Origin: a virus
Strand: one strand, 5' to 3'
Virus record (IMG/VR): IMGVR_UViG_3300043434_000266
Location: 14,991-78,990 of that record
DNA length: 64,000 nucleotides
Shown: positions 14,901-53,909 of the stretch, in pieces
Layout of the letters: every line of letters begins with the position of its first letter
How positions within the stretch are numbered: the stretch's first letter is position 1
Made by a program: the position numbers and the translations under genes
Notes under the pieces: model-generated
The model's input: only the letters and a program-made list of their open reading frames with translations
What the model was told of the DNA's origin: nothing
Database searches by the model: none

Positions 14901-16738
14901 ATACAGACTTACTACTTTATATCTTCCAAAACAAGCTATATAGTTTTGATAGTGAGACCGATACATATAGATCTGCTGATATTACTGAGACTGTTGCACC
15001 TATTGCAAAAGAACAAGTTCTTAAAAGAGGAGCATTTCTTAATCCTAACACAGGTGTAATGCATGTTGATAAAGCTCAGATCATTAAAGAGTTTAAATCT
15101 AAAGCATTTACTACACCATCATATGGCGGCGAAAGTAGATTAGCGCCGTTACCAGCATCTATATTTGATAGATATAAAACTGAGAATAGAGTAAAACTCT
15201 ACTATAAGTTTGTACTAGAAAGAGAGTCTTTAAGAGATGCTTATCCATACAATGAGACTATAAACAGTTTTGAGTTCCAAAACTTCTTAGTAATGATAGG
15301 GTTGAATACTGATATACCTATGCGCTATGAAGAATTCATTCGTAACAAAGCTTTAGAAAACTTATATCTTGATGGTCCTTTATTTGGAGCAGAGTACAAG
15401 TTTAATGGTATGACTACTGCTGTAGATAAGTTCTTAAGAATTCTTGAGACTCATCCGGAGTTAGTTACCGCATATCCTGTACTTGATATTATAGGAACTG
15501 TTAAGTCTGGTTCACATAGATTCTTCAAACTTAACGATAGAATTTCTGATGGAACTGTACTTACTGCATATAAAGATCAGATGGCAATCCTTGCGGATCC
15601 GGGTCAGATTAAAGTAAAAAATACTGAGGAAAACTTATACATCAGTCAATTCTTTGCAAAATTAAATACCATAGGATATCTGCAAGCAGGTAACAATAAG
15701 AACTCTGAATTGTATATGATGTCTATATTGGATATGAAACCAATCAGTAGCTATGTTCAGAACACTATAAATGATGTTATGAATAGTCCTAAGTTGGATG
15801 GTGTGTTGGAAGATTTTGAAAGTAAGTTTACCACATCATTTGCAAGACGTAAGTCATTTGCATTTACAAACTATGCGTTTAATGCACCTTATACAGCAAC
15901 TGATAAAGCAACAGTAGAAGATCAACCATTACTGAAGTATATAAGAAACGGAAAGGTTAAAACTGGAAGTATATTCATTAATGAAGAAACAGGAGAGATT
16001 GAAGATGTCTATAAGTATAACGAGTCTATGTTTGAAACTACTAGTAAAGTAGTAGCTAAAGATGATACTGAGTTAACAAAGAGAAACTATAAGATCACTG
16101 AAACTGATGTACAGGCATTATTTCAGATTAATCCTGAAGCAACGTATGTATTTGAAGATTCTTATCCTAAAGTAACTTTAAAGGAAGATGGTTCTTTAAA
16201 CATTGGTCAAAGACCAACTAATCCTACTAGAATTGAGCAAGAAGCATTTCGCGCAGGTTTAGCAACAGGAAACAGTTTTGCAATTCCTATTACAAAGCAA
16301 GATGGTTCTATACCAGCAGTTGAAAAAAATGCGGTACCCAAGGAGCTGATTGACATGTACATTCAAGAACTAGTGAATTTAAGAGATAGTGGAAAAACTA
16401 TCATATTCCCTTCAGAAGGTATAGGTAATAAACTATTAGGATTCTTTAAAAACAGCTTAGGTAACTTAGAAATGAGAAAAGAAGGAGCGAAGAATATAGA
16501 TCTGTACTTATATTTGTCTAAGAAACTTCTAGAGAACTTCGGATATAGAAATCCTAAAATGGAAATGATCACTAAGAACTTTACACCTGAGTTACTTGAG
16601 GGTGCTCAAACAGGACTAGAGTTCATACAGCAGTTCTATATAAACAAGTCAGAGAGTTTAGGGTTAAGTGAACCACTTCAAACTCTAACAGACAAAGAGG
16701 TTAATGATTATATTAATAAATGTAAAGGTATTTCGTAA
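5945..16738 (+). CDS. Virion-packaged single-subunit double-psi beta-barrel DNA-dependent RNA polymerase (crAss-like, phi14:2 gp66 type) with an N-terminal zincin domain
   Basis: RIPTQG..SM..F..LP...GN....P...VAKSGGDFDIDKL, with catalytic DFDID at 12419-12433. HESWH..EEHLAE zincin motif from 8078. 3597 aa. Confidence 0.9.
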   Translation: MSIICDPSGEWSISREDIFKINRKVAGMLAEKIEKNSKIDLGKFINAIFDEVVTATGDQQRALAVARHIPFAIELSKQVFPDKIRVPLHKNKLLDSAALEDVSVSFTESLDNVATFLNNYRDSLKPKVRDTAGITNSSAAVQPKTKIDVLDYVFVPDDVLTTTGQEVNDERDLRWYYNFLKYLGEQNIYPNADGTINYFGKTLQVSIMTGLSIPVDKLYPYERVKPNIEKMKTNQIFIGFTDTNGDFVYFDDNYNLTDDTGAFIYFPLRTVPKVISEQNGKRIFDIDESVRENRIQPIASIVANRRLAGENTNEELVRDQINQNYNDIKDITDYLLSKGNYKKKLKLNLNRISRGFIFRVSGTEGRKRIDSITNLSDFNPVILDSNEAKGMVKAAFYVTGVDEPIPFSMADFPKELAEKTADLLLNDVYYDGNLITSTDKSRLISQYLGFNLNDKTGPEGTVGFMYSPTTGEILINSKPLSTDKAQAKNEIVDYLTRDISIPTADKEIAFKNKLFFNQRFVNDNFTDFSLSPVSEGFALTTNQDVTYVDWVKDNAYVYAKTTNGEIREENGYIAFEVPIDTLYIARQKMTDAQIKEFKAKQESKTVKPNSVLENNASPSSPTNLADLLMRRDMTGFDVSATPEQIEKAKEDYDAKVITFRDKNGKVVQKKLTDLIPYEVMFNIANSNGNVRATWTRAGITLFQGSDYTDLYHESWHGFTQWFLTGDQKLKLYNEVKNSGETIRYYNNGWKTMNSSKLDFNNPDHILYAEEHLAEKFREYSLGKYTPASAVEKSMFKKIWEAIKALFGFGSPEEVLAPSGLVAKAFQDLKAGNLVDYTFDQANVRFNRLNSGITALKSSTSPIKNLDITSSLMVTEGITDVISASVDELNKEYGTNKFTIGIFENDTVKKEVLRRAKSKLIDKLNELEAKVDLATGFEKDRLDKSVQTLSWAIDNFDIDDVKSGTLKYYNDRTGFFTLSTGAKVIDTETAIDGQTEENTDAPASREGVTTDEGTEFSAVDRMSDSMRYILESLFERVEPTKDNPEGYVYNDLGFRKAVPFKTAFAVIASATANKLTPEEMYKSLQTASDTKTRNKTQNYKFLFIKQLLAKLGDPRNPNAQSLTGQNLISEFFFTFRLDKQTGIQVTAEREGVSLTIKVGTSDSAEKAFGRTLENRFQTGKVKSKYITKNKNNEYEINLKGILEDYPSSTAANASPVSFLRALGIDITDTDAVINFLKKQNAITNIYQTVLDRSKLIDKPTTSLVPERASGLFNDKSSVWNTLLEAESKYSGFNAGYMFKNVNGDPQSEMNNPSTAGNQIHLINAAKTYAELISDPRTAHYSTERNSWVKTSVMFQKLFGKKLTIKNTEDGRPVSINVQSLLGTQALNVEDDIRSLISGMKSAASDVQTAYLRDYFMTLLNGASEAFKHADKSSTYVASLDAGGVYYYVNPKTFTSNIGRNKANEIFIGYIASELERIKKVSSKKLIGEQADDIILGGKPGSYETLKTRGSEFVVFHDIIKDELKEELIKLDVNTVEDFLDLVGKDASLKDKLVNALNNYFDQLALEDYTMLKSFGVTKAENFFKTIKNRFPELAVLSDQDVLKATSEAFTYNAFIHKMEMSTLIYGDPALYTHDKDEHMKRVSGFFATGRIGRTDSSMNAFIAANAGSYHTSQWFKQSGFAAPTNTLSYQSTILPIAVGEDPVDRSVYLDEMIKIAKEQGIPESDYAAYEEMKSADGEAWISFDAYRALEIRFRNWNPQKELLYNKIINNEKTDSAEVLKTFYPVKKLQYSGPLDITNFSALAFHKYSLIPLIPSVIKDSRLEVLHNKMVSEGIAYTVLQSGSKIVSIGKNGTLDSFYDKNYNPKFADPNFKFTKNNIFVDYLKEQLVTKDKFKEEIDFPSQIRKLIVLGMDPESPLIKTYLSNIDKMTKVAETELKMELGYKDVKSRKKGEPALDLKKLLEYVKSSLTAQDLAEQSIDFIEIGDDGKLVRFLDLSEDPSKIEKIIGALVNKRINKQPVYGEQYIQGSSVGFEKFSKPTQIDLDKYGEWGLPFYRMSKDGKSVSAMKIKIALHGKFKNLLKLNHTDNKVIGTIERLNEMLKDENWLNTGEHRQMVTLIGARIPTQGPNSMEFMEVFEFLPEEAGNIMILPLEIVAKSGGDFDIDKLVTMIPGITDNEGVIEIEKPKSSRKLLNTIIEEKYELINEIKEIRKKYLKSYLTPELQEQIDSLEKEQSDAYQEFLSQWTNNYYVGGATEKYYSRISNAKQAIDSIYEQFDQDLNDQYNAEVEPVKEKLRQLNREENFYKPKAYQQDVLNSMRAILSRPDNYINLTRPNGTGIYTEGSEDAQFNNKSIVEFLAEFNRVYNKKFTKTNPLGKKKISPTRIMENGYNISKAAALFTGKMGVGMLATGNTFHASAVLADVYMSPFREEEKLVNKVPVTYKLIQQLLIPHNFKIVDGEKVIDFSKPKDADLKNYVRDVVSELMNGYLDVAKDEWVYDINAVKQLEPEFEFMLLAGVPVKTAALMLAQPLVRQYLNKFKEYSSPYALFNPEDNLSNTNFAKRQALIDVLLKNDMSSVFPMDDTGEPNTFLNTPALLETLRAQYLQGDLKSNRNALILEKARLEGLEEVTVGTEYEIYFDKSDSVSILTVQSITPKKNEYSVVLKNEKSGKEYTYTVNKFGEGKTMRFEEPVTFIDVTSEINRLSKQIADADIELEEAPQGEFPNLVIGDKVTETLNRRRDESGNIKKIEVPGEFYKVEVPGHSDIRLYLSKNDYGTWVVEEFYSGLPVGSGSTPSIALADAEKKLKENLSNIKKGDKGYEIAKEIKADVKKLTPPKGKAKSVKPQESPEILFNNEKLIDNLRKPGSSLSKQHFAHFAEIIYMASQLTNLKMGIRFDTLKNTSYFDADQQEKGFEATLGKAFPADVVNRLIDKTVLKSFRTGAFLKEVIGTLLPVRANSKVNNAIGSIIKGMSDLSMDDKEKLASQFNTDLLLYIFQNKLYSFDSETDTYRSADITETVAPIAKEQVLKRGAFLNPNTGVMHVDKAQIIKEFKSKAFTTPSYGGESRLAPLPASIFDRYKTENRVKLYYKFVLERESLRDAYPYNETINSFEFQNFLVMIGLNTDIPMRYEEFIRNKALENLYLDGPLFGAEYKFNGMTTAVDKFLRILETHPELVTAYPVLDIIGTVKSGSHRFFKLNDRISDGTVLTAYKDQMAILADPGQIKVKNTEENLYISQFFAKLNTIGYLQAGNNKNSELYMMSILDMKPISSYVQNTINDVMNSPKLDGVLEDFESKFTTSFARRKSFAFTNYAFNAPYTATDKATVEDQPLLKYIRNGKVKTGSIFINEETGEIEDVYKYNESMFETTSKVVAKDDTELTKRNYKITETDVQALFQINPEATYVFEDSYPKVTLKEDGSLNIGQRPTNPTRIEQEAFRAGLATGNSFAIPITKQDGSIPAVEKNAVPKELIDMYIQELVNLRDSGKTIIFPSEGIGNKLLGFFKNSLGNLEMRKEGAKNIDLYLYLSKKLLENFGYRNPKMEMITKNFTPELLEGAQTGLEFIQQFYINKSESLGLSEPLQTLTDKEVNDYINKCKGIS

Positions 16739-19700
16739 TGATAAATGCATGTCCCGGGGGACCAGAATGGAACAAACTTGTTAAAGCTGTAGGTGAATTT
16801 GAAGCTTATAAGGATTACATAGAGAACGGTGAAACAATCCGTTCTGTTGATGAAGTTTTAAAAAGCAAACCTTTTCTTGAAAAGGTAAAACGTAATGAAG
16901 CTGATACAAAAGCTATAGAAGAAAATCTTCTATCAGGGTTCCTTAAAGATTTTGGAATAACGGTAACAGAATACGAATCATTAAAAGATGATCTTGGATT
17001 AAATGGATATACCGCAACAGACCTTATTACTAAAACTGTTGTTCATCAACCAGGGGAGTCGATATTACCTGAAGCAGCATATATTGCTTATTCTATTTTA
17101 GGTAAACAGAATAATAAAATCAGATCCGAGCTAAGATATTTGATCAGAAAGTGGGACAAGTACGAAGAGAGATTTAACTTCCATAAAGAGTTATTGAAGA
17201 AAAATAAAGTGTCCATTAAGGATTCAAAAGAATGGAAAAACAATATCCGAGATAAGGTTATTATTGACTTCTTAAAAGATAATTTGTATCAATACTACAG
17301 TAATCCTACTGAATTTAAAAAGAATTTGGATACTAAGTGGACTCAAGAAGACTTTACTTTATGGGAGAAGATCATTAGAGCTATTGAAAACTTTTTAAGT
17401 AGAACCTTTGGATATAAGGAAGAAGAGTATATAACTCAGTTAAAAGACACAGGTTCTGCAATAGCAAGTGAACTACTTACACAAAACTATGAATACTTCA
17501 AGTATAATCTTTCAGAAGATCAGATTAGAAAGTACTATAGTAGTACAATAGAATCAGATCCTAAAGCAAAAGATATTGTTACAGTATTACAAAAGATCGG
17601 TTTAGTTTTAACAGGATCATTAGCATTAAGAAGAGCTGGTGAAGTATACAGAACAGCAGAAGAGAGTGTGCATGATATAGATTGGATTGTACCATACCTC
17701 ATGAACATGTCCGGATATAATGCTAAGCTAACTGAAGCAATGTTGAGAGGTGATGAACCTACTCTATTCAGAGAAGATGTTGAAAAACTAAAATTGGATA
17801 AGCGTTCTAAAAACGCTTTGAATCAAATTGCTCAGATGGATTGGTTTCTTAAAGTACAAGAAGCATATCCTAATATAAGATTTACAAACGGATTTTATGG
17901 AAAAGAGCATGCTAATCTAGAAAGTTTTACAGCGCAAGCTGCAATAGACGGTGAATTTTATGATAGCGATGGTTATCATGAAGAAGAATTTGCTACTTAT
18001 AGAAAGGATCCTTATACAGGTGCACCAGTAAAAGAAAAGATTAAGAGAACTATAAAGCACCAAAAGGGGGATTACGTTAAGGGTACCGGTTATCAAATAG
18101 ATTTCTTTGTAAGACTAGAAGAGCATCAGGAAGAACATGATGGTTATTTCTTATTATGGAAAGAAATCATGTTAGCTAAACTAAGAATGGGTAGAGATAA
18201 AGATTTCATTGATTGGAAAGCATTTCAACCATACTTAGCATCTAAGGATAAGTTTAATTTCTTCTATGAAGGATTCCGTCATATAAATTTTGAGAGTTCG
18301 CAAGACTTCTTTTTAGAAGACATGACTCTTAGCAAGAAAATAAAGTATGAGGATATTGATACTATTGTTAACTATATCGTTGATACAATTCCTGGAGTTA
18401 AAACTTATGCTGAAAAGGTAGGATTCACACCTGTTCAAACAAACATGCGTAAAGCTAACTCTGTTGTAGAAGCAATGGTTCAGCAATTGTCATCTAGATT
18501 AAACATCCCTTATCAATTTGTTACAGCTGCTGAAGCACGTGAAATTCTAGAAGGTGCTGGTAAACCATTCACAAACCAAGCGGGTTTTTATGTCGGAGGT
18601 ACAGTATATCTAGTGTCTAGTGATTTGAATCTAGAGACAGCAATACACGAATTTAGTCACCCTTTTATAAGAGCGATTCAACAAGAGAATCCTCAACTAT
18701 TTGAAAAATTAGTTAGTGATCTATCTTTAACAGAAGAGGGTCAAAAGATCATTAACATAACAAAACAGTTATACGGAGAAGACGATCCTTTATATAAGGA
18801 GGAGTTACTAGTTCGAGCATTAACTCGAGCAGCTAGAATGAAACTTACTGGAGCACTTAAGCAGTATAAAAACAAAAGCTTTAAAAGTGTAATCGATAGA
18901 GTATTGTATGCTATAAAAAAGGCATTCAGAAAATACTTTGGTAAGTCTGTTGATGTTTCTGATTTAGATGTAGACACAAGTATTGAAGATCTATCTGAAA
19001 TGTTGTTGTCTGCAGATCAAATTACCTTTGATGTTGAAGCGGTTAGTCAAGAAGAACTTGTAGCAGAAGAACGCCGTGTCAAAGAAGAAATAGATCAGTT
19101 TCTTAATATTGGTAATACCGATAGCGGTGCTATTGCTATTAAGACAATGATTAGTGATTTTACTCGTATATCAAGAGATCACATCGACAAGTTAGTAAAG
19201 AACCGTAATCTTAAAGATATAGCGGAGATCCTTAAATCAGGTTATGATGAATCTGACTATAAGAGTATTATTCGAAATTTAAGTAACTATCAAGAAGATC
19301 TACTAGAAAAAATAGAGGACGCTTCAGAAAGACTAGAATACGAATCTCAAAGAGCAACTGCATTAGTTAACTCTATATACAGAATTAAATATATGAGTGC
19401 CAAGATGGTACTGCATATGAAAGACTTACTTGCTGAGGACATCTCTCCTGATACTGTAAGAAAGTTTTACTATTATAGTAAACTTGTAGATGATTGGTCT
19501 AAGATTATTGCAAAGACGCGTCGAATGATGACGAATGAAGATGTGATAACAGGACCAATGGCAACTGTTGTTTCAGAGATTGAAAGTTTATTGAAGACAG
19601 CAAAAGACTTAGATGTTGATATGAGCATGCGAGGTTCTGTTGATTTGTTAACAGAGACTATCAAACCTTTATCAGATAAAGTTAAGACTTACTATGAGGA

Positions 19701-49985: not shown

Positions 49986-50879
49986 CTAAAAGATATAACG
50001 TATTGTGTTCCAAGGTATTAGCAACTCATGTAAACACTTAAACTGATATATGTAATCAGCTTTTAGTTTATGGTTGTACCTTATATTTAACTGACCATTA
50101 CTAGAGATCTTGTTCTCTTGTATGTCAGGTCTCCATAGTAGATCTTCTCCGGGTATCCCATTAGCAAGATTATACTCATGCTTCTTCTCATTATGTGTGA
50201 GAAAGATAACTTCTGATCTTATATCATGAGTTTTCTTATACAAGGGAAATACAATCTTATCTACAAGCATAAACAAATCCCGGTAATCTTCTAACCAAGT
50301 ATCAGTAACTATAACAGGACTGAAGTTAATATGTACATTGTAACCATACTTTATAAAGTCATTAATAGCATATATTCTCTCCTCTATAGGACTAGTGTTA
50401 GGTTCTAGTATATCCGCATACTTCTGCGGCATTAAACTAAATCTGATACGGGTTCTGTCAGGATGTACATTTAAATGTGATAAGTCATAGTTTACATATT
50501 TAGTAGCAAATGAGAACAGCATACCATTACCTTTTGGGTAACTAAATATCTTCTCTAGGTCATAATACTTAGCATGTAAAGCAAGATCTTCACTTACACC
50601 TATGTCATAGGTTACTCTTGTATCATGAGTTTGATTAGGTTTGTTAGCAGCAATCCATCCAGACTGAACAAGAATATCTTGATGCTTACCTACAGCATCT
50701 AATACATCATCTACATTTTTTGCAATCTGTAATCCGGTAGGTCTATGTCTTTTCATGTAGCAGTAACTGCAGTTGAATAGACACCCGTGACCAAAACTAG
50801 GAGCAATGAAGTCAGTGCTTCTCCCGGATTCAGTAATCTTAAGTTGCCGTCTGGTAACCTCTTTTACTAAACCATTCAT
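49986..50879 (-). CDS. Spore photoproduct lyase family radical SAM protein
   Basis: GCLFNCSYCY, FATKY, RIRFSLMP, VHINFSPVI, ends IRYIF. Confidence 0.85.
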   Translation of the reverse strand: MNGLVKEVTRRQLKITESGRSTDFIAPSFGHGCLFNCSYCYMKRHRPTGLQIAKNVDDVLDAVGKHQDILVQSGWIAANKPNQTHDTRVTYDIGVSEDLALHAKYYDLEKIFSYPKGNGMLFSFATKYVNYDLSHLNVHPDRTRIRFSLMPQKYADILEPNTSPIEERIYAINDFIKYGYNVHINFSPVIVTDTWLEDYRDLFMLVDKIVFPLYKKTHDIRSEVIFLTHNEKKHEYNLANGIPGEDLLWRPDIQENKISSNGQLNIRYNHKLKADYIYQFKCLHELLIPWNTIRYIF

Positions 50880-50891
50880 AAGATAATAGTT

Positions 50892-51140
50892 TTATTTCCA
50901 ACCTAACTGTTGGAGTACTTCAGCGTACGGAGTATATATCATGAAATACTCCCCACTTTTTAGATATACAAAAGATAAATCAGGATTGATATGTTCTTCA
51001 TCATCCTCAGCATGTTGTCTAACTGCAGTAATATCATCAATATTTATACATATCTCAGCATGAATAATATGTTCTACTCCTGTGATGTCAGATAGCTTAG
51101 TATTATTAAGATCTATCTTTGTTTTTAAGATGTTTTTCAT
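50892..51140 (-). CDS. Hypothetical protein
   Basis: 82 aa; INIDDITAVR..VYLKSG. Confidence 0.65.
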   Translation of the reverse strand: MKNILKTKIDLNNTKLSDITGVEHIIHAEICINIDDITAVRQHAEDDEEHINPDLSFVYLKSGEYFMIYTPYAEVLQQLGWK

Positions 51141-51155
51141 CAGTTTTTAAGTTTG

Positions 51156-51234
51156 TAGAGAAGACAGGATTCGAACCTGTATGTAGTGAGCCTTATATAA
51201 GACTTACTATGCGTAACCATTCCGCCACTTCTCT
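51156..51234 (-). ncRNA. tRNA-like RNA A (Leu-type D arm, non-canonical anticodon arm)
   Basis: Acceptor AGAGAAG/CTTCTCT, D arm TGGCGGAATGGTTACGC, T arm ACAGG-TTCGAAT-CCTGT; middle arm is an 11-bp stem (one mismatch) with a 4-nt loop. Confidence 0.75.
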
Positions 51235-51239
51235 ATGTT

Positions 51240-51279
51240 GCTTGTCTTTCCAAGCTGTCAGTTGTCTTTTCCAACGTCA
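51240..51279 (-). repeat. Two tandem TGAC-stem-GAAAGA-stem hairpins
   Basis: TGACGTTGGAAAAGACAAC and TGACAGCTTGGAAAGACAAGC. Confidence 0.65.
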
Positions 51280-51303
51280 CTCAATCTTCCCTCATGAGTG
51301 GGT

Positions 51304-51321
51304 TGCAGTCAGGACAGGATT
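51304..51321 (-). pseudogene. 3' remnant of a tRNA-like element (B)
   Basis: AATCCTGTCCTGACTGCA; its AA forms part of the HNH stop codon. Confidence 0.65.
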
Positions 51322-51727
51322 ACTTCTTTTTTAATCCTTCCCTATATCTTTTAACCATCATGTTATTGATAGCTTTACATTCTTTACATCTACACCCTCT
51401 AAGATATGCGCCTCTGCTTGGGTGTTTTTTTAATTTATCACCGTTACTTCCATTTATAATTCTTCCTTTTGTAACAGCATCTTGATGGTTATCTTTAGCT
51501 GTTCCTAAAAATAAATGATTAGGATTTACGCATTTTCTATTATCACAAGTGTGACATACATACATTCCATTAGGAATTACACCATTATGTAATTCATAAG
51601 ATATACGATGTGCATCTACAACTTTACCATTAAGTTTAAATGCACCATATCCTGTCTTACCTCTTAATCCTGCTGTCCATAACCAACAAGTATCAGTTTT
51701 ATCTACTTTATCAAAAAACCTTTCCAT
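51320..51727 (-). CDS. HNH homing endonuclease
   Basis: [35 protein letters not shown]; C-terminal GCRCKEC; start moved to MERFF. Confidence 0.92.
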
Positions 51728-51747
51728 ATACTCATATTTTGTAGTCA

Positions 51748-51755
51748 CAAATATA
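51748..51755 (-). promoter_or_regulatory. Bacteroidota -7 box (TATATTTG) upstream of HNH
   Basis: TTCG-TATATTTG about 20 nt before the ATG. Confidence 0.6.
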
Positions 51756-51819
51756 CGAACCTTTTTATTAAAAGTCAAGAGATGAAGGAAATATTTCTAT
51801 TTCCCTCATACATCTTGCT

Positions 51820-51891
51820 CAGTCGAGGACAGGATTCGAACCTGTATCTCCCGCGTTTTCCATAGGGTGTTTCCACTTACACCACCTGACT
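51820..51891 (-). ncRNA. tRNA-like RNA C (non-canonical anticodon arm)
   Basis: Acceptor AGTCAGG/CCTCGACT (one bulge), D stem GTGT/ACAC, canonical T arm; weak middle stem with a GAAAA loop. Confidence 0.7.
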
Positions 51892-51896
51892 ATGTT

Positions 51897-51917
51897 CCTC
51901 GTCTTTCCGAGGTGTCA
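51897..51917 (-). repeat. Third TGAC-stem-GAAAGA-stem hairpin
   Basis: TGACACCTCGGAAAGACGAGG, 5 nt upstream of RNA C (same spacing as for RNA A). Confidence 0.7.
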
Positions 51918-52044
51918 TTACTTACCTTGCAGTGAGCCGTGTTCCCTATTATTCAGAGACCAATACCACCCGTTTTATACTCTTGGTAGGCAGAGTCGAT
52001 GTTGGAGCATCGGTGAAGTTAACCTTTGTCACGATTAACTTTTG

Positions 52045-52181
52045 TAGTCAGGACAGGTTATAACCCTGTACGATAACACTCACTGGAAAGGCTATAACAG
52101 GTGGTCCTGCTTATACCTTAGGTAATCCTCTTATGTGTTATCTATCTTACCCCCTTAGCGTCTTTATTCCGCCACCTGACT
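52045..52181 (-). ncRNA. tRNA-like RNA D with a large insertion replacing the anticodon arm
   Basis: Acceptor AGTCAGG/CCTGACT, D arm TGGCGGAATAAAGACGC, T stem ACAGG/CCTGT, internal GATAACAC/GTGTTATC stem; 137 nt. Confidence 0.7.
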
Positions 52182-52186
52182 ATTTG

Positions 52187-52273
52187 TGGAGCACCTTGGA
52201 GTCGAACCAAGAGGGCTTAGGCAACTAAATCCTAATTATAGGTAACCCTACCACGTTTTCTATTCTGTGCCCC
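52187..52273 (-). ncRNA. Ala-identity tRNA-like RNA E resembling a tmRNA tRNA-like domain
   Basis: GGGGCAC/GTGCTCC-A with G3:U70; T arm CTTGG-TTCGACT-CCAAG; no D stem. Confidence 0.7.
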
Positions 52274-52278
52274 AATTT

Positions 52279-52397
52279 GAGGATGAGAAGTCCTCTGTGT
52301 TGTGTAACTTGTGTTTCGTGGTGTCTAACACTGACTGGGCAAACCAAGCTCTAGTAGTTACCTTACATTCTTCATCATTTCTCAAGGGAACAACACA
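52279..52397 (-). ncRNA. Candidate pseudoknotted RNA F
   Basis: TGTGTTGT/ACAACACA stem; GAGGA-CTTCTCA-TCCTC hairpin whose loop complements TGAGAA. Confidence 0.5.
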
Positions 52398-52512
52398 TAC
52401 ACCCGACTTTAGCTTGGTGTTAGCTACTTGCAATAGTGGATATCACACCTGCAAGGTACTCTCCATAGTGTGCATTGTTAAGAGGCTTGGAGGTTCAATT
52501 TTAATTACTATC

Positions 52513-52677
52513 TCATTGTTTAAAATGTGCATAAAATCCTACATAAACTAGTGTTAATAAAGCAGCTAAACAAACAAAAGTTAAAGTAAGTGGGTAAGTT
52601 ATAATTAACCAGCACCATACAGCTACTACTGCTATTGCTCCTAGTGTTGCTAATAGTGCTTTAATGTGTTGTTTCAT
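52513..52677 (-). CDS. 54-aa two-TM membrane protein (not in ORF track)
   Basis: MKQHIKALLATLGAIAVVAVWCWLIITYPLTLTFVCLAALLTLVYVGFYAHFKQ; ATGA overlap. Confidence 0.65.
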   Translation of the reverse strand: MKQHIKALLATLGAIAVVAVWCWLIITYPLTLTFVCLAALLTLVYVGFYAHFKQ

Positions 52678-53192
52678 TCTGTTTCTTTTAAGTAAAGTTC
52701 ATAAATCTCTTCTATTGTAAGAAGATTGTCTGTTATAAGAGTGTTAGCATAAACATTACTTCCGTCTGTACTGTCAAAGCAATCCCAATCAGATGACTTA
52801 AACCATTCTGCAAATTTTAGTATATTACTATGCTTATCTTTTATGATTAATTCATCATCAGTTAAACCACAGTCACACTCCTCCATACCGCAATCATCGC
52901 ATACTAACATGGTTGATTCATCATTTTTAATAATATCATCTATCTCCCTATTAAACTCTTCAGATGTAATAGAATCAAGATGTTTTTTAAGATTATCAAG
53001 TATTGGCGTTTGTGTTGGAGCTGAAATAATTTTATGATGGTTTGGATTACTAAAATCCACTACACAATCACATGTTTTTCCGAGTTGCTTTTTTTCTATT
53101 AAGAAAGCTTGTTCAATAACTTTTTGTTCATGTTCGAGTGGTTCATTTTTCCAAATTTGGCTTACTAACCATTCTACTGCTGATTGTTTCAT
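52674..53192 (-). CDS. Modular hypothetical protein
   Basis: MKQSAVEWL..EQAFLIEKKQ; CDDCGMEECDC; KFAEW. Confidence 0.65.
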   Translation of the reverse strand: MKQSAVEWLVSQIWKNEPLEHEQKVIEQAFLIEKKQLGKTCDCVVDFSNPNHHKIISAPTQTPILDNLKKHLDSITSEEFNREIDDIIKNDESTMLVCDDCGMEECDCGLTDDELIIKDKHSNILKFAEWFKSSDWDCFDSTDGSNVYANTLITDNLLTIEEIYELYLKETE

Positions 53193-53545
53193 ACCTCGTT
53201 AGTGATTTTAATTGTTTTGATGTATGTACCATCTTTTGCAATCGTATCTTTTGCTGCTTTTTCAGATTCGTGACAACTTCCTAACCATATACAATCCCCT
53301 TCTTGATATACATTAACCCACCCTTCAATAACTTTTGGAGCCATGAATAGGTCTAAATGAGAGTTACCACCAGTAGTATACGCTTTACCATTTTTACACC
53401 AATGTATTATTTGATCTTTTAAAACACCCACTAAAGGGTAATCAGTAATTGATGCATTAAACAAATGTAATTGAGTAACCTCCTCTCCAATTCTGGTTAC
53501 AACAGGTTCTCCTGCTAATGCTTTTTCTAAATTAAACGGTTTCAT
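53189..53545 (-). CDS. Hypothetical phage protein
   Basis: Start moved to MKPFNLEKALAGEPVVTR; DLFMAP..EGWVNVY. Confidence 0.7.
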   Translation of the reverse strand: MKPFNLEKALAGEPVVTRIGEEVTQLHLFNASITDYPLVGVLKDQIIHWCKNGKAYTTGGNSHLDLFMAPKVIEGWVNVYQEGDCIWLGSCHESEKAAKDTIAKDGTYIKTIKITNEV

Positions 53546-53547
53546 AG

Positions 53548-53754
53548 TTAGTCCTCCAAATCTATTACATACATAATTTGTTTTCTCCAGAATATCGCTG
53601 AAGGTAATGCAGCAATACCATAAAATAAAGCAGCACCCCATAGTTTCCAACCAAACTCAGTTTCACTATTATAAGTAATAGCTCCTCATACTGCTATGAA
53701 TTCTAATACCGACATGATGGTAAACAGGATAATTGTCTTAAAAAAGTTTTTCAT
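53548..53754 (-). pseudogene. Two-TM membrane protein gene with an in-frame TGA at codon 23
   Basis: MKNFFKTIILFTIMSVLEFIAV*GAITYNSETEFGWKLWGAALFYGIAALPSAIFWRKQIMYVIDLED; ends 2 nt before the next start. Confidence 0.6.
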
Positions 53755-53798
53755 AATTTTTAGTTTTTAATCTGTTCAGTAAAATGCTTTAAAAATGT

Positions 53799-53904
53799 GC
53801 AGTACAGAACCCAGTGCTATTGCGCACCAGGATTATGCGCATCTGACCTGGACTTTTGCTCAACTGGGGCGACTAGGAGCTACCTAGTCTGCTATCTGCA
53901 CTGC
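53799..53904 (-). ncRNA. Candidate pseudoknotted structured RNA
   Basis: Stems GCAGTGCAGA/TCTGTACTGC, GACTAGG/CCTAGTC and CCCAGT/ACTGGG, plus crossing CCAGG/CCTGG and TGCGCA/TGCGCA; strand inferred from context. Confidence 0.6.
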
Positions 53905-53909
53905 GTTTT

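Follow-up and report, generated by a model that had tools for sequence, protein, structure and literature searches.

On the minus strand, positions 51141-52512 of the window analyzed here, a 64,000-nucleotide (nt) stretch of the IMG/VR virus record IMGVR_UViG_3300043434_000266 (positions 14,991 to 78,990), carry an array of tRNA-shaped elements that have no anticodon arm. On balance, we favor the reading that this is a block of non-coding RNA in which a tRNA-derived chassis is excised by host enzymes, presents a variable cargo, and is perhaps leucylated. That the RNAs are non-decoding and that their shape is under selection is well supported by comparison of the window with other viral loci and contigs (designated by L-numbers). 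The stretch of ~1.4 kb is poor in open reading frames (ORFs), the only long one being an HNH gene, and its G+C content is 0.42-0.475 compared to ~0.33 in the surroundings. From 5′ to 3′ on the minus strand, on which all features described below lie, the order is a leader unit, element E, element D, a 153-nt spacer, element C, an HNH cassette, remnant B, a 69-nt spacer, element A, and an ORF of 82 amino acids (aa). An earlier, sequence-only reading had proposed the five pieces A to E at the positions given below and had described their stems, and both the positions and the stems are as it said.

Element A (51156-51234, 79 nt) is an intact chassis RNA with the acceptor AGAGAAG/CTTCTCT, the D arm GCG-GAATGGTTA-CGC, the T arm ACAGG-TTCGAAT-CCTGT, A73 and C74; it thus has a 7-bp acceptor stem, a D arm and a T arm with a TTCRANY loop. 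Its minimum-energy fold is cloverleaf-like (z −2.78; all fold z-scores compare the minimum-energy fold with shuffles), with an interrupted 10-bp (4+6) helix and a 4-nt UAUA loop replacing the anticodon and variable arms. Element C (51820-51891, 72 nt) has the D arm, the T arm and a bulged acceptor; it folds like shuffles (z 0.0) because its 3′ acceptor strand, CCTCGACT, contains one extra C. Element D (52045-52181, 137 nt) has the acceptor AGTCAGG/CCTGACT, a tRNA-Leu-type D stem and an 87-nt insert, and folds in the same frame as A (z −3.19), with a D loop that has no GG and a T loop reading GTTATAA. The inserts of A, C, and D (26, 21, and 87 nt) are mutually unrelated. Three features that the sequence-only reading had emphasized all stand: the common T stem, whose 17-mer ACAGGTTCGAATCCTGT is exact at A and C and has three mismatches at D (three matches compared to 0.15 expected by chance); the difference between the acceptors of A and D, which affects three positions, all compensated; and the missing anticodon stem-loop, as a 5-bp stem with a 7-nt loop (Y-U-NNN-R-N) was found in none of the minimum-energy folds of A, C, D, and E. 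A covariance model of lake-phage tRNA-Leu chassis RNAs, R1, matched A, which is in its training set, with 64.5 bits, and C and D, which are outside it, with 38.1 bits (E 5e-8) and 38.3 bits (E 4e-8). With the Rfam tRNA model (RF00005, gathering cut-off 29 bits), A scored 44.5 bits and C 25.7 bits, under the cut-off, and D gave no match at E ≤ 10. The expectation that ARAGORN would return no call or a pseudogene was wrong for A, which is called tRNA-Arg (tct) and which Rfam also places above its cut-off. In the minimum-energy fold, the tct triplet is paired inside a helix, and the call is an artefact.

Elements A, C, and D are members of a phage family of tRNA-Leu-derived chassis RNAs, and this family is very large: the same chassis with different inserts is present in more than 150 phage contigs. 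The 15-mer AGTCAGGTGGCGGAA was matched in at least 120 IMG/VR contigs, and for 109 of the 141 copies CCTGACT is found 28-195 nt further on, preceded by ACAGGTTCGAATCCTGT, the middle being different nearly every time. When genomes were searched with this 15-mer, four of the matches listed (120, mostly chance) had the full frame, all with long inserts; two named ones are a Flavobacterium and a Sediminibacterium metagenome-assembled genome (MAG). The runs containing the window are freshwater or lake metagenomes, four of which join the constant pieces around foreign middles, and the family is carried by uncultured freshwater phages, probably of Bacteroidota. Full-text searches of the literature gave no description of such a lake-phage family.

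A collinear array in locus L030, consisting of a transfer-messenger RNA (tmRNA) gene, a leader unit and three elements, all with long unrelated middles and no anticodon arm, provides positional orthologues. The counterpart of D (L030:602-768) shares its acceptor and has a different insert, and that of A (L030:831-948) has A's leader and a related acceptor, GAAGAAG, but an unrelated 58-nt insert. The sequence-only reading had proposed to look for normal tRNAs at orthologous loci and for an even spread of mutations; neither of these counterparts is a normal tRNA or has an anticodon, and the changes are concentrated in positions 27-47, with the frame nearly invariant over more than 100 contigs. 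In the arrays of L085 and L101, the true tRNAs (Leu, Gln, Glu, Ser, Ile, and others) come with individual acceptors and T arms; ~10 anticodon-less RNAs are interleaved among the tRNAs of L085, nearly all on the common AGTCAGG/ACAGG chassis. Chassis RNAs score 31-48 bits with the Rfam tRNA model, compared to 55-70 bits for true phage tRNAs, and ARAGORN calls on insert-bearing members are scattered over Pro, Cys, Ile, Glu, Tyr, and undetermined. When the window and 19 array-bearing loci were compared with Rfam, the chassis RNAs matched tRNA models only, and no riboswitch, ribozyme, intron, or Y-RNA family was found.

The chassis varies in a few ways. Some members carry an extra D-loop hairpin between A15 and G18, for example GGCTCGGGATTTCTCGGGC, which constitutes a second permissive site (L347:3144-3288, L348:168-301, L370:1309-1447, L135:1055-1227, L148, L151, L164, and L171). 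A few others bear a canonical anticodon arm beside anticodon-less RNAs, such as the 71-nt apparent tRNA-Lys(UUU) of L133 (minus strand, 1217-1287 of the reverse complement), in which CCGAT-CTTTTAA-ATCGG is set on the AGTCAGG/ACAGG chassis. In L130 (minus strand, 4098 of the reverse complement), a 28-nt 'empty' chassis, AGTCAGGTGGCGGAATCCTGTCCTGACT, looks as if the stretch from D-loop GGAAT to T-loop GAAT had been deleted.

The conserved positions of the chassis are those of a tRNA top half. In an alignment of 41 members, U8-A15 is invariant, and conservation reaches at least 90% at G18, G19, A21, and the U that precedes the T stem (position 48). The acceptor, D, and T helices are 98.9% paired, with 9 of 15 pairs changed on both sides compared to 1.8 in shuffles, in a set that is partly pre-selected for pairing, as most rows came from a scanner demanding perfect acceptor and T pairing. 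Loci anchored on a radical-SAM gene gave a sample of 15 distinct elements that is unbiased for acceptor sequence; AGTCAGG occurs in 6 of these, and the rest are compensated variants with a matching 3′ strand. The variant acceptors are AGATAGG, AGTCAAG, AGCCAAG, AGTTAGG, AGTTATT, ATTTCCA, AGTGGTA, GAAGAAG, and GGCACAG. Over 199 copies, the discriminator is A (A73) in 94% and C74 is present in 98%, while position 75 is C in 5% only, and an A-rich tail follows; the A-C-A ends remarked on in the sequence-only reading are thus real and family-wide. Position −1 is U in 57% of copies. Features of RNase P substrates include U(−1) and the contact of R73-C74 with the P15 loop. Altogether, the chassis retains what gives a tRNA its L-shape and its top, namely the 7-bp acceptor, the T arm with the U preceding its stem, A73, C74, U8, A14, A15, and G18-G19. 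The likeness of the D arm to tRNA-Leu, also pointed out before, extends to tRNA-Leu genes of Bacteroidota MAGs, which share the chassis D arm, GTGGCGGAA(A/T)TGGTAGACGC. This identity indicates that the chassis is of tRNA-Leu origin.

The inserts, of ~20-140 nt, replace positions 27-47, that is, the anticodon and variable arms, and the RNAs are unable to read codons. One cargo type was recovered from 47 contigs. For 23 distinct members of this type, the RNAalifold prediction consists of the chassis, an inner hairpin, and a helix of 8 bp placed exactly where the anticodon stem would be; 14 of 27 pairs are compensated, with pair 29-79 being CG in 17 members and UA in 6, and the same cargo is also found on the acceptors AACAGAG, GGAGAGA, and AGTCAAG. 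The cargo of D recurs in L135:1055-1227 with 79% column identity and two compensated pairs (GGTA/TACC changed to AGCA/TGCT). The compensated pairs of the 47-contig cargo and the recurrence of the D cargo indicate that the cargo, which differs between copies yet is conserved within types, is under selection. The description of these RNAs as non-decoding and shape-selected with an interchangeable middle is therefore borne out by the >150 contigs, the compensated acceptor and T stems, the covariation within one insert type, and the positional orthologues without an anticodon. Since the L135 copy of the D cargo retains the D-loop GG and the T loop TTCGAAT, D in the window has lost both halves of the elbow lock between the D loop and T loop. 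Loss of the D-loop GG and loss of the T-loop consensus coincide in two cases (Fisher p = 0.053, not significant). The inserts and spacers of the window were also compared with the rest of the 79-kb record for possible antisense targets; the longest matches are 9-13 nt, which is the chance level.

The array has also been entered by a predicted homing endonuclease. The cassette (51322-51819) begins in the T loop and 3′ strand of C; downstream of C's end, CCTCGACTGA, it contains a hairpin (51782-51809), a degenerate copy of the chassis 3′ end, GGTTCGTATATTTGTGACTACAAAA (51737-51761), and an HNH ORF of 135 aa (51320-51727) that matches HNH_3 (PF13392, E 8e-13) and PHROG endonuclease families (E down to 1e-33). 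Remnant B, ATCCTGTCCTGACTGCA (51304-51321), is a T-loop and 3′-acceptor end that overlaps the HNH stop codon. HNH homologues with 69-82% identity are embedded in chassis RNAs of L373, L105, and L147 that carry other cargo. A chassis 3′ end follows the HNH stop codon in L105, where CTCCTGTCCTGACT comes after the ORF, and in L147, which has the same junction with TAA fused to TCCTGTCCTGACT; L373, whose sequence ends before that point, shares with the window both the pseudo-chassis copy and the upstream hairpin, the latter with compensated changes. The uninterrupted chassis sequence at this site is ACAGGTTCGAATCCTGTCCTGACT, of which CCTCGACT at C is the window's variant. In X5, a run of assembled contigs, a 96-nt contig (record 20) contains C with two substitutions and one 1-nt insertion and continues into GACTACTA; its uninterrupted end, CCTGACTACTA, represents a C allele without the cassette, and X20, likewise a run of assembled contigs, carries the same two changes. 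Because the same junctions recur in other phages and a cassette-free C allele exists, B is the original 3′ end of C, displaced by the HNH cassette. The constant T loop and 3′ strand of the chassis would then serve as the homing site of an HNH family specialized on the chassis; the HNH_3 domain, the duplicated target flanks, the shared insertion site, and the cassette-free allele all fit a homing endonuclease, with cleavage being putative.

According to the reading we favor, the block would be transcribed together with the neighboring genes, since no terminator-like site was found on the minus strand between the array and the 82-aa ORF or in the array outside the HNH cassette, and the Bacteroidota −7 box, TAnnTTTG, is likewise absent from the minus strand of the array outside the cassette, where its sole occurrence lies in the pseudo-chassis copy. 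This box is not enriched in the window (91 matches compared to 81 expected), and family-wide it lies ≤ 14 nt upstream of the chassis-start motif in 13 of 340 matches. Host RNase P and the 3′-end and CCA machinery would cut out each chassis like a tRNA, and the product, stable and L-shaped, would offer its cargo to a partner. Host leucyl-tRNA synthetase (LeuRS) may charge the chassis, given that it retains A73 and A14; in E. coli, these two nucleotides are essentially what defines tRNA-Leu identity, and the anticodon arm is not required for aminoacylation (PMC9976931). The sequence-only reading had put forward three ideas for what such RNAs do. A processed scaffold displaying variable cargo fits the anatomy best, chargeability is compatible with the retained LeuRS determinants, and a decoy for tRNA-targeting toxins has nothing specific in its favor. 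Phage tRNAs are generally interpreted either as aids to codon usage or as substitutes for tRNAs cleaved by host defenses. That a single chassis, unable to decode, is reused with many structured inserts suggests that the tRNA shape serves a purpose outside translation.

Several observations weigh against a processed chassis presenting functional cargo. The 65 inserts examined fall into 56 sequence classes with no motif common across cargo types (GGGGTA occurs in only 5), and they fold slightly better than shuffles, with a mean z of −0.65; because of this weak folding and the lack of a common motif, some of the cargo may be neutral filler. No common neighbor gene was found within 4 kb of the elements in 88 loci, the top cluster, terminase large subunit, being present in 9 of 88. 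Within the window, A alone looks fully intact. The acceptor and T stems of the AGTCAGG lineage are conserved in sequence beyond the needs of RNase P and CCA addition, which hints at a sequence-specific reader or at homogenization at the DNA level. Finally, the expression-side material consists of assembled contigs, which are unable to show discrete ends, CCA addition, or charging.

A more ambitious version of this reading, which we offer tentatively and regard as less probable, is that of a modular RNA platform of freshwater Bacteroidota phages, in which one tRNA-Leu-derived handle, recognized by a single reader, would carry dozens of exchangeable cargo domains, the cargo being traded at the constant ends with the help of handle-targeting homing endonucleases. 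Candidate readers of the handle would be host LeuRS, EF-Tu, RNase P, or a phage protein, and each cargo would bind a different target, for example host defense or translation factors. If true, the family would be a natural tRNA-scaffold aptamer library.

Element E (52187-52273, 87 nt; z −1.92) is tRNA-shaped in a different frame. It has the acceptor GGGGCAC/GTGCTCC with G3:U70, A73, the T arm CTTGG-TTCGACT-CCAAG, and two mini-hairpins in the middle, and it has no D stem. No match to R1 or to any Rfam family, including tmRNA, was found, nor one to the Rfam tRNA model at E ≤ 10. The sequence-only reading had placed E in one array of like RNAs with A, C, and D. This holds for A, C, and D, all of which match R1, and fails for E, which is a separate kind of RNA; that difference had been missed, as had the lost elbow lock of D and the fact that B and the HNH gene form a cassette splitting C. 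In the window, E has all of the acceptor determinants listed for bacterial alanyl-tRNA synthetase (AlaRS), which are G2-C71, G3:U70, G4-C69, and A73 (PMC9976931). Its one homologue, L373:5851-5938, likewise lies between a leader unit and a chassis RNA and has A3-U70 instead of G3:U70, indicating that the shape of E is conserved and its alanine mark is not.

These retained determinants bear on an alternative in which the chassis itself is the working part and the cargo only tunes it. The RNAs would then be leucylated aminoacyl donors acting off the ribosome, with E perhaps alanylated, or a sponge for factors or toxins that bind the tRNA top half. We regard this as unlikely, though it is the strongest of the competing explanations. 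It would account for the retention of A73, A14, U8, A15 with the U before the T stem, and G18-G19, for acceptor and T stems kept in sequence beyond the needs of shape, and for the complete set of AlaRS determinants in E. However, the alanine determinant is not conserved in the only homologue of E, D has lost the G18-G19/T-loop lock and keeps its cargo, and profile searches and neighbor clustering of the 88 loci gave no aminoacyl-transferase or tRNA-targeting toxin gene nearby. The covariation within the cargo also argues that the cargo matters.

Somewhat less probable again is the possibility that the elements are punctuation marks in long phage transcripts, in which the tRNA-like top directs cuts by RNase P and RNase Z that set mRNA ends or protect 5′ ends while the middle drifts. 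Plant mitochondrial t-elements, which are tRNA-like processing signals (PMC1920247), set a precedent, and the wide variation of the inserts in length and sequence, together with their weak folding, would be expected. Element A ends 15 nt before the ATG of the 82-aa ORF, a terminase gene lies beside an element in nine loci and starts 28 nt downstream of it in L109, and 52 of 137 elements with a following same-strand ORF lie ≤ 60 nt upstream of that ORF, a distance figure that has no null model. Against this, back-to-back arrays of 5-10 copies within tRNA clusters punctuate nothing, and one cargo type has been kept with compensatory changes over 47 contigs.

The HNH cassette raises the question of whether the constant ends matter mainly as DNA, that is, as homing or recombination sites that move cassettes between phages, with the RNA shape being a relic of a tRNA gene. 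The same cassette is found at the same chassis position in four phages, each with a different cargo; the empty chassis of L130 is joined at GGAAT; one cargo occurs on different acceptor stems and one chassis with many cargos; and metagenome contigs join the constant pieces around foreign middles. We nevertheless consider this explanation improbable, as the acceptor and T stems show compensated substitutions, the tertiary-core nucleotides are invariant, and the retention of U8, A14, A15, G18-G19, and the U preceding the T stem across more than 100 lineages is not what a relic would show.

Decay of a former phage tRNA array into pseudogenes is more improbable still. It would explain why C is disrupted, why D has neither the D-loop GG nor the T-loop consensus, why E has no D stem, and why ARAGORN and Rfam still detect a tRNA in A. 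It does not agree with changes that gather in positions 27-47 while the frame remains nearly invariant, with orthologous positions in L030 that also have no anticodon, with covariation in the cargo, or with the block being a gain relative to the closest relatives (below). No canonical tRNA was found in the whole 79-kb phage record, which is 65% complete, and on this basis the elements of the window are not debris of a working tRNA set. The least probable explanation is that of real tRNA genes with introns that are spliced out to restore the anticodon arm: the inserts lie exactly at the tRNA-intron site and members such as the tRNA-Lys(UUU) of L133 have a canonical anticodon arm, but group I introns, at ~200 nt or more including the group I core, are longer than the inserts (20-140 nt), there is no Rfam intron match in the array loci and no Intron_gpI match at E ≤ 10 in the window, neither side of the inserts of A, C, and D can be read as a 5-bp stem with a 7-nt loop, the ARAGORN 'anticodons' scatter over many amino acids, and bacteria are not known to have a tRNA-splicing endonuclease.

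Among described RNAs, the closest relatives are the 'tRNA-like stable RNAs' of phages T5 and T4. In the T5 record AY543070, the annotation 'tRNA-like stable RNA with unknown functions' is given to RNA1 and RNA2, and 'putative tRNA-like RNA' to RNA3. What the T5 RNAs have in common with the family is a place in the phage tRNA cluster beside HNH homing endonucleases and, for RNA1, an acceptor helix, a D arm of the tRNA-Leu type (CCGGAAUUGGUAGACGG), and a T arm, the middle being ~85 nt long and free of an anticodon arm. The best match of R1 in the T5 tRNA region is RNA1 (39.1 bits), compared to 35.2 bits for T5 tRNA-Leu. The T5 RNAs differ in their acceptor and T-arm sequences and in their host, E. 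coli, and there is no sign in T5 of one chassis reused with many cargos; they were also seen as stable RNAs in cells, whereas the window RNAs are known from DNA alone. In T4, the species 1 and 2 RNAs (rnaC and rnaD) are small stable RNAs at the end of a tRNA cluster that holds the homing endonuclease SegB. Like the chassis RNAs, rnaC ends in a T arm and an acceptor-like strand, and part of it gives a weak R1 match (23.8 bits); unlike them, the T4 RNAs have no tRNA-Leu D arm and no common chassis. The window elements fit the T5/T4-type description in their location in an RNA-gene cluster, their tRNA-like acceptor and T arm, and the absence of an anticodon arm. To our knowledge, the stable RNAs of T5 and T4 have never been assigned a function, and the family described here offers many natural variants and covariation data that bear on them.

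The chassis also shares with class II bacterial tRNA-Leu (RF00005) an identical D arm, A73, a 7-bp acceptor, and a T arm, A passing the model's cut-off; it differs in having no anticodon stem-loop and in A1-U72 replacing G1-C72. Like tmRNA, the elements combine a tRNA top half with a long internal domain and no anticodon arm, and E resembles it further in its GGGGC start, G3:U70, and missing D stem. The window differs from tmRNA in that it contains neither a tag reading frame nor pseudoknots and neither Rfam nor ARAGORN calls a tmRNA there; moreover, U3-A70 and a complete D arm are present in A, C, and D, and the homologue of E is without the G:U pair. By analogy only, as neither has any sequence relation to the chassis RNAs, plant mitochondrial t-elements (PMC1920247) and the engineered recombinant tRNA scaffold, which uses the tRNA fold to stabilize an attached RNA (PMC3753655), illustrate how a tRNA top half lets cell enzymes excise or stabilize what is attached to it. 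If the chassis is a processing or stability handle, it would be a natural counterpart of the engineered scaffold, and the cargos a catalogue of phage RNAs.

A second unit with constant ends and a variable middle precedes the array. This leader unit (52279-52396), upstream of E, has the motif GTGTTGT-TCCC-TTGAGAA...ACAACAC, in which GTGTTGT (52390-52396) pairs with ACAACAC (52297-52303) around the variable middle. It ends in the 3′ hairpin GAGGA-CTTCTCA-TCCTC (52279-52295), the loop of which is complementary to the upstream TTGAGAA, a possible pseudoknot. Both constant ends, 55-110 nt apart, are present in at least 13 other loci and always before the first chassis RNA (copies include L030:176-256, L373:5771-5850, L101:2015-2101, L174, L176, L178, and L342); in L030, the unit lies directly 3′ of the tmRNA gene, and in metagenome contigs its ends flank 29-40 foreign letters. 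The leader unit gave no Rfam match, and the window copy folds like shuffles (z +0.22). Smaller leader hairpins stand before individual elements. That of A (51240-51255) is GCTTG-GAAAGA-CAAGC, separated from A by 5 nt (AACAT), and the D-C spacer (51892-52044) ends in CCTCG-GAAAGA-CGAGG (51897-51912), again followed by AACAT. The GAAAGA-loop hairpin with AACAT recurs in at least 8 other loci with a compensated stem and the loop kept, the L127 version being GCTG/CAGC with the loop GGAAGA, and an identical 23-nt stretch with A's leader hairpin precedes chassis RNAs in L030, L121, L158, and L297/L318. In size and loop, the hairpin is reminiscent of lambdoid boxB hairpins. In X24, a metatranscriptome run also consisting of assembled contigs, a 76-nt contig with a depth of ~14,000 matches 51244-51279 (the spacer and leader before A) with 5 differences. 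The run also has short contigs on the constant pieces and a 155-nt contig on 52297-52451, which were not counted as evidence, as contigs reveal neither strand nor ends and DNA carry-over is possible.

The array is part of a block (50880-53909) that consists of ORFs of 153, 172, and 54 aa, the RNA array, the HNH gene, and the 82-aa ORF (50892-51140), which is the first ORF downstream of A and has no family match. Downstream of the 82-aa ORF lies a gene for a radical-SAM protein of the spore-photoproduct-lyase type (49986-50879; PF20903, E 2e-18). The closest relatives by this flanking gene, L003 and L004, with 89-90% amino-acid identity, do not have the ~3-kb block. Because they run from a 109-aa ORF straight to the radical-SAM gene, 142 nt away, the block with the array is an accessory gain relative to them. 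The 153-, 172-, 82-, and 54-aa ORFs gave no Pfam match, and the 172-aa ORF had no match in a protein atlas. In INPHARED, a distant-mode search with the array and a near-mode search with the surrounding 15 kb returned only HNH matches or nothing. A candidate nucleotidyltransferase domain in a 2339-aa virion protein (17560-18230) was rejected, as Pfam gave nothing for it at E ≤ 0.1 and it could not be connected with the RNAs.

Other structured RNAs were seen near arrays of this kind. Directly upstream of the homologous array in L030, the phage tmRNA gene (L030:1-174) scores 49.8 bits with Rfam, its 5′ end being cut by the locus, and a 'freshwater-1' RNA motif (RF02979; 70.1 bits, cut-off 72) lies within an array of phage tRNAs and chassis RNAs at L093:4124-4186. 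ARAGORN called tmRNAs near the radical-SAM gene at L027:7264-7624 and L040:3200-3556, and the radical-SAM gene is kept beside a variable RNA site in 69 viral loci.

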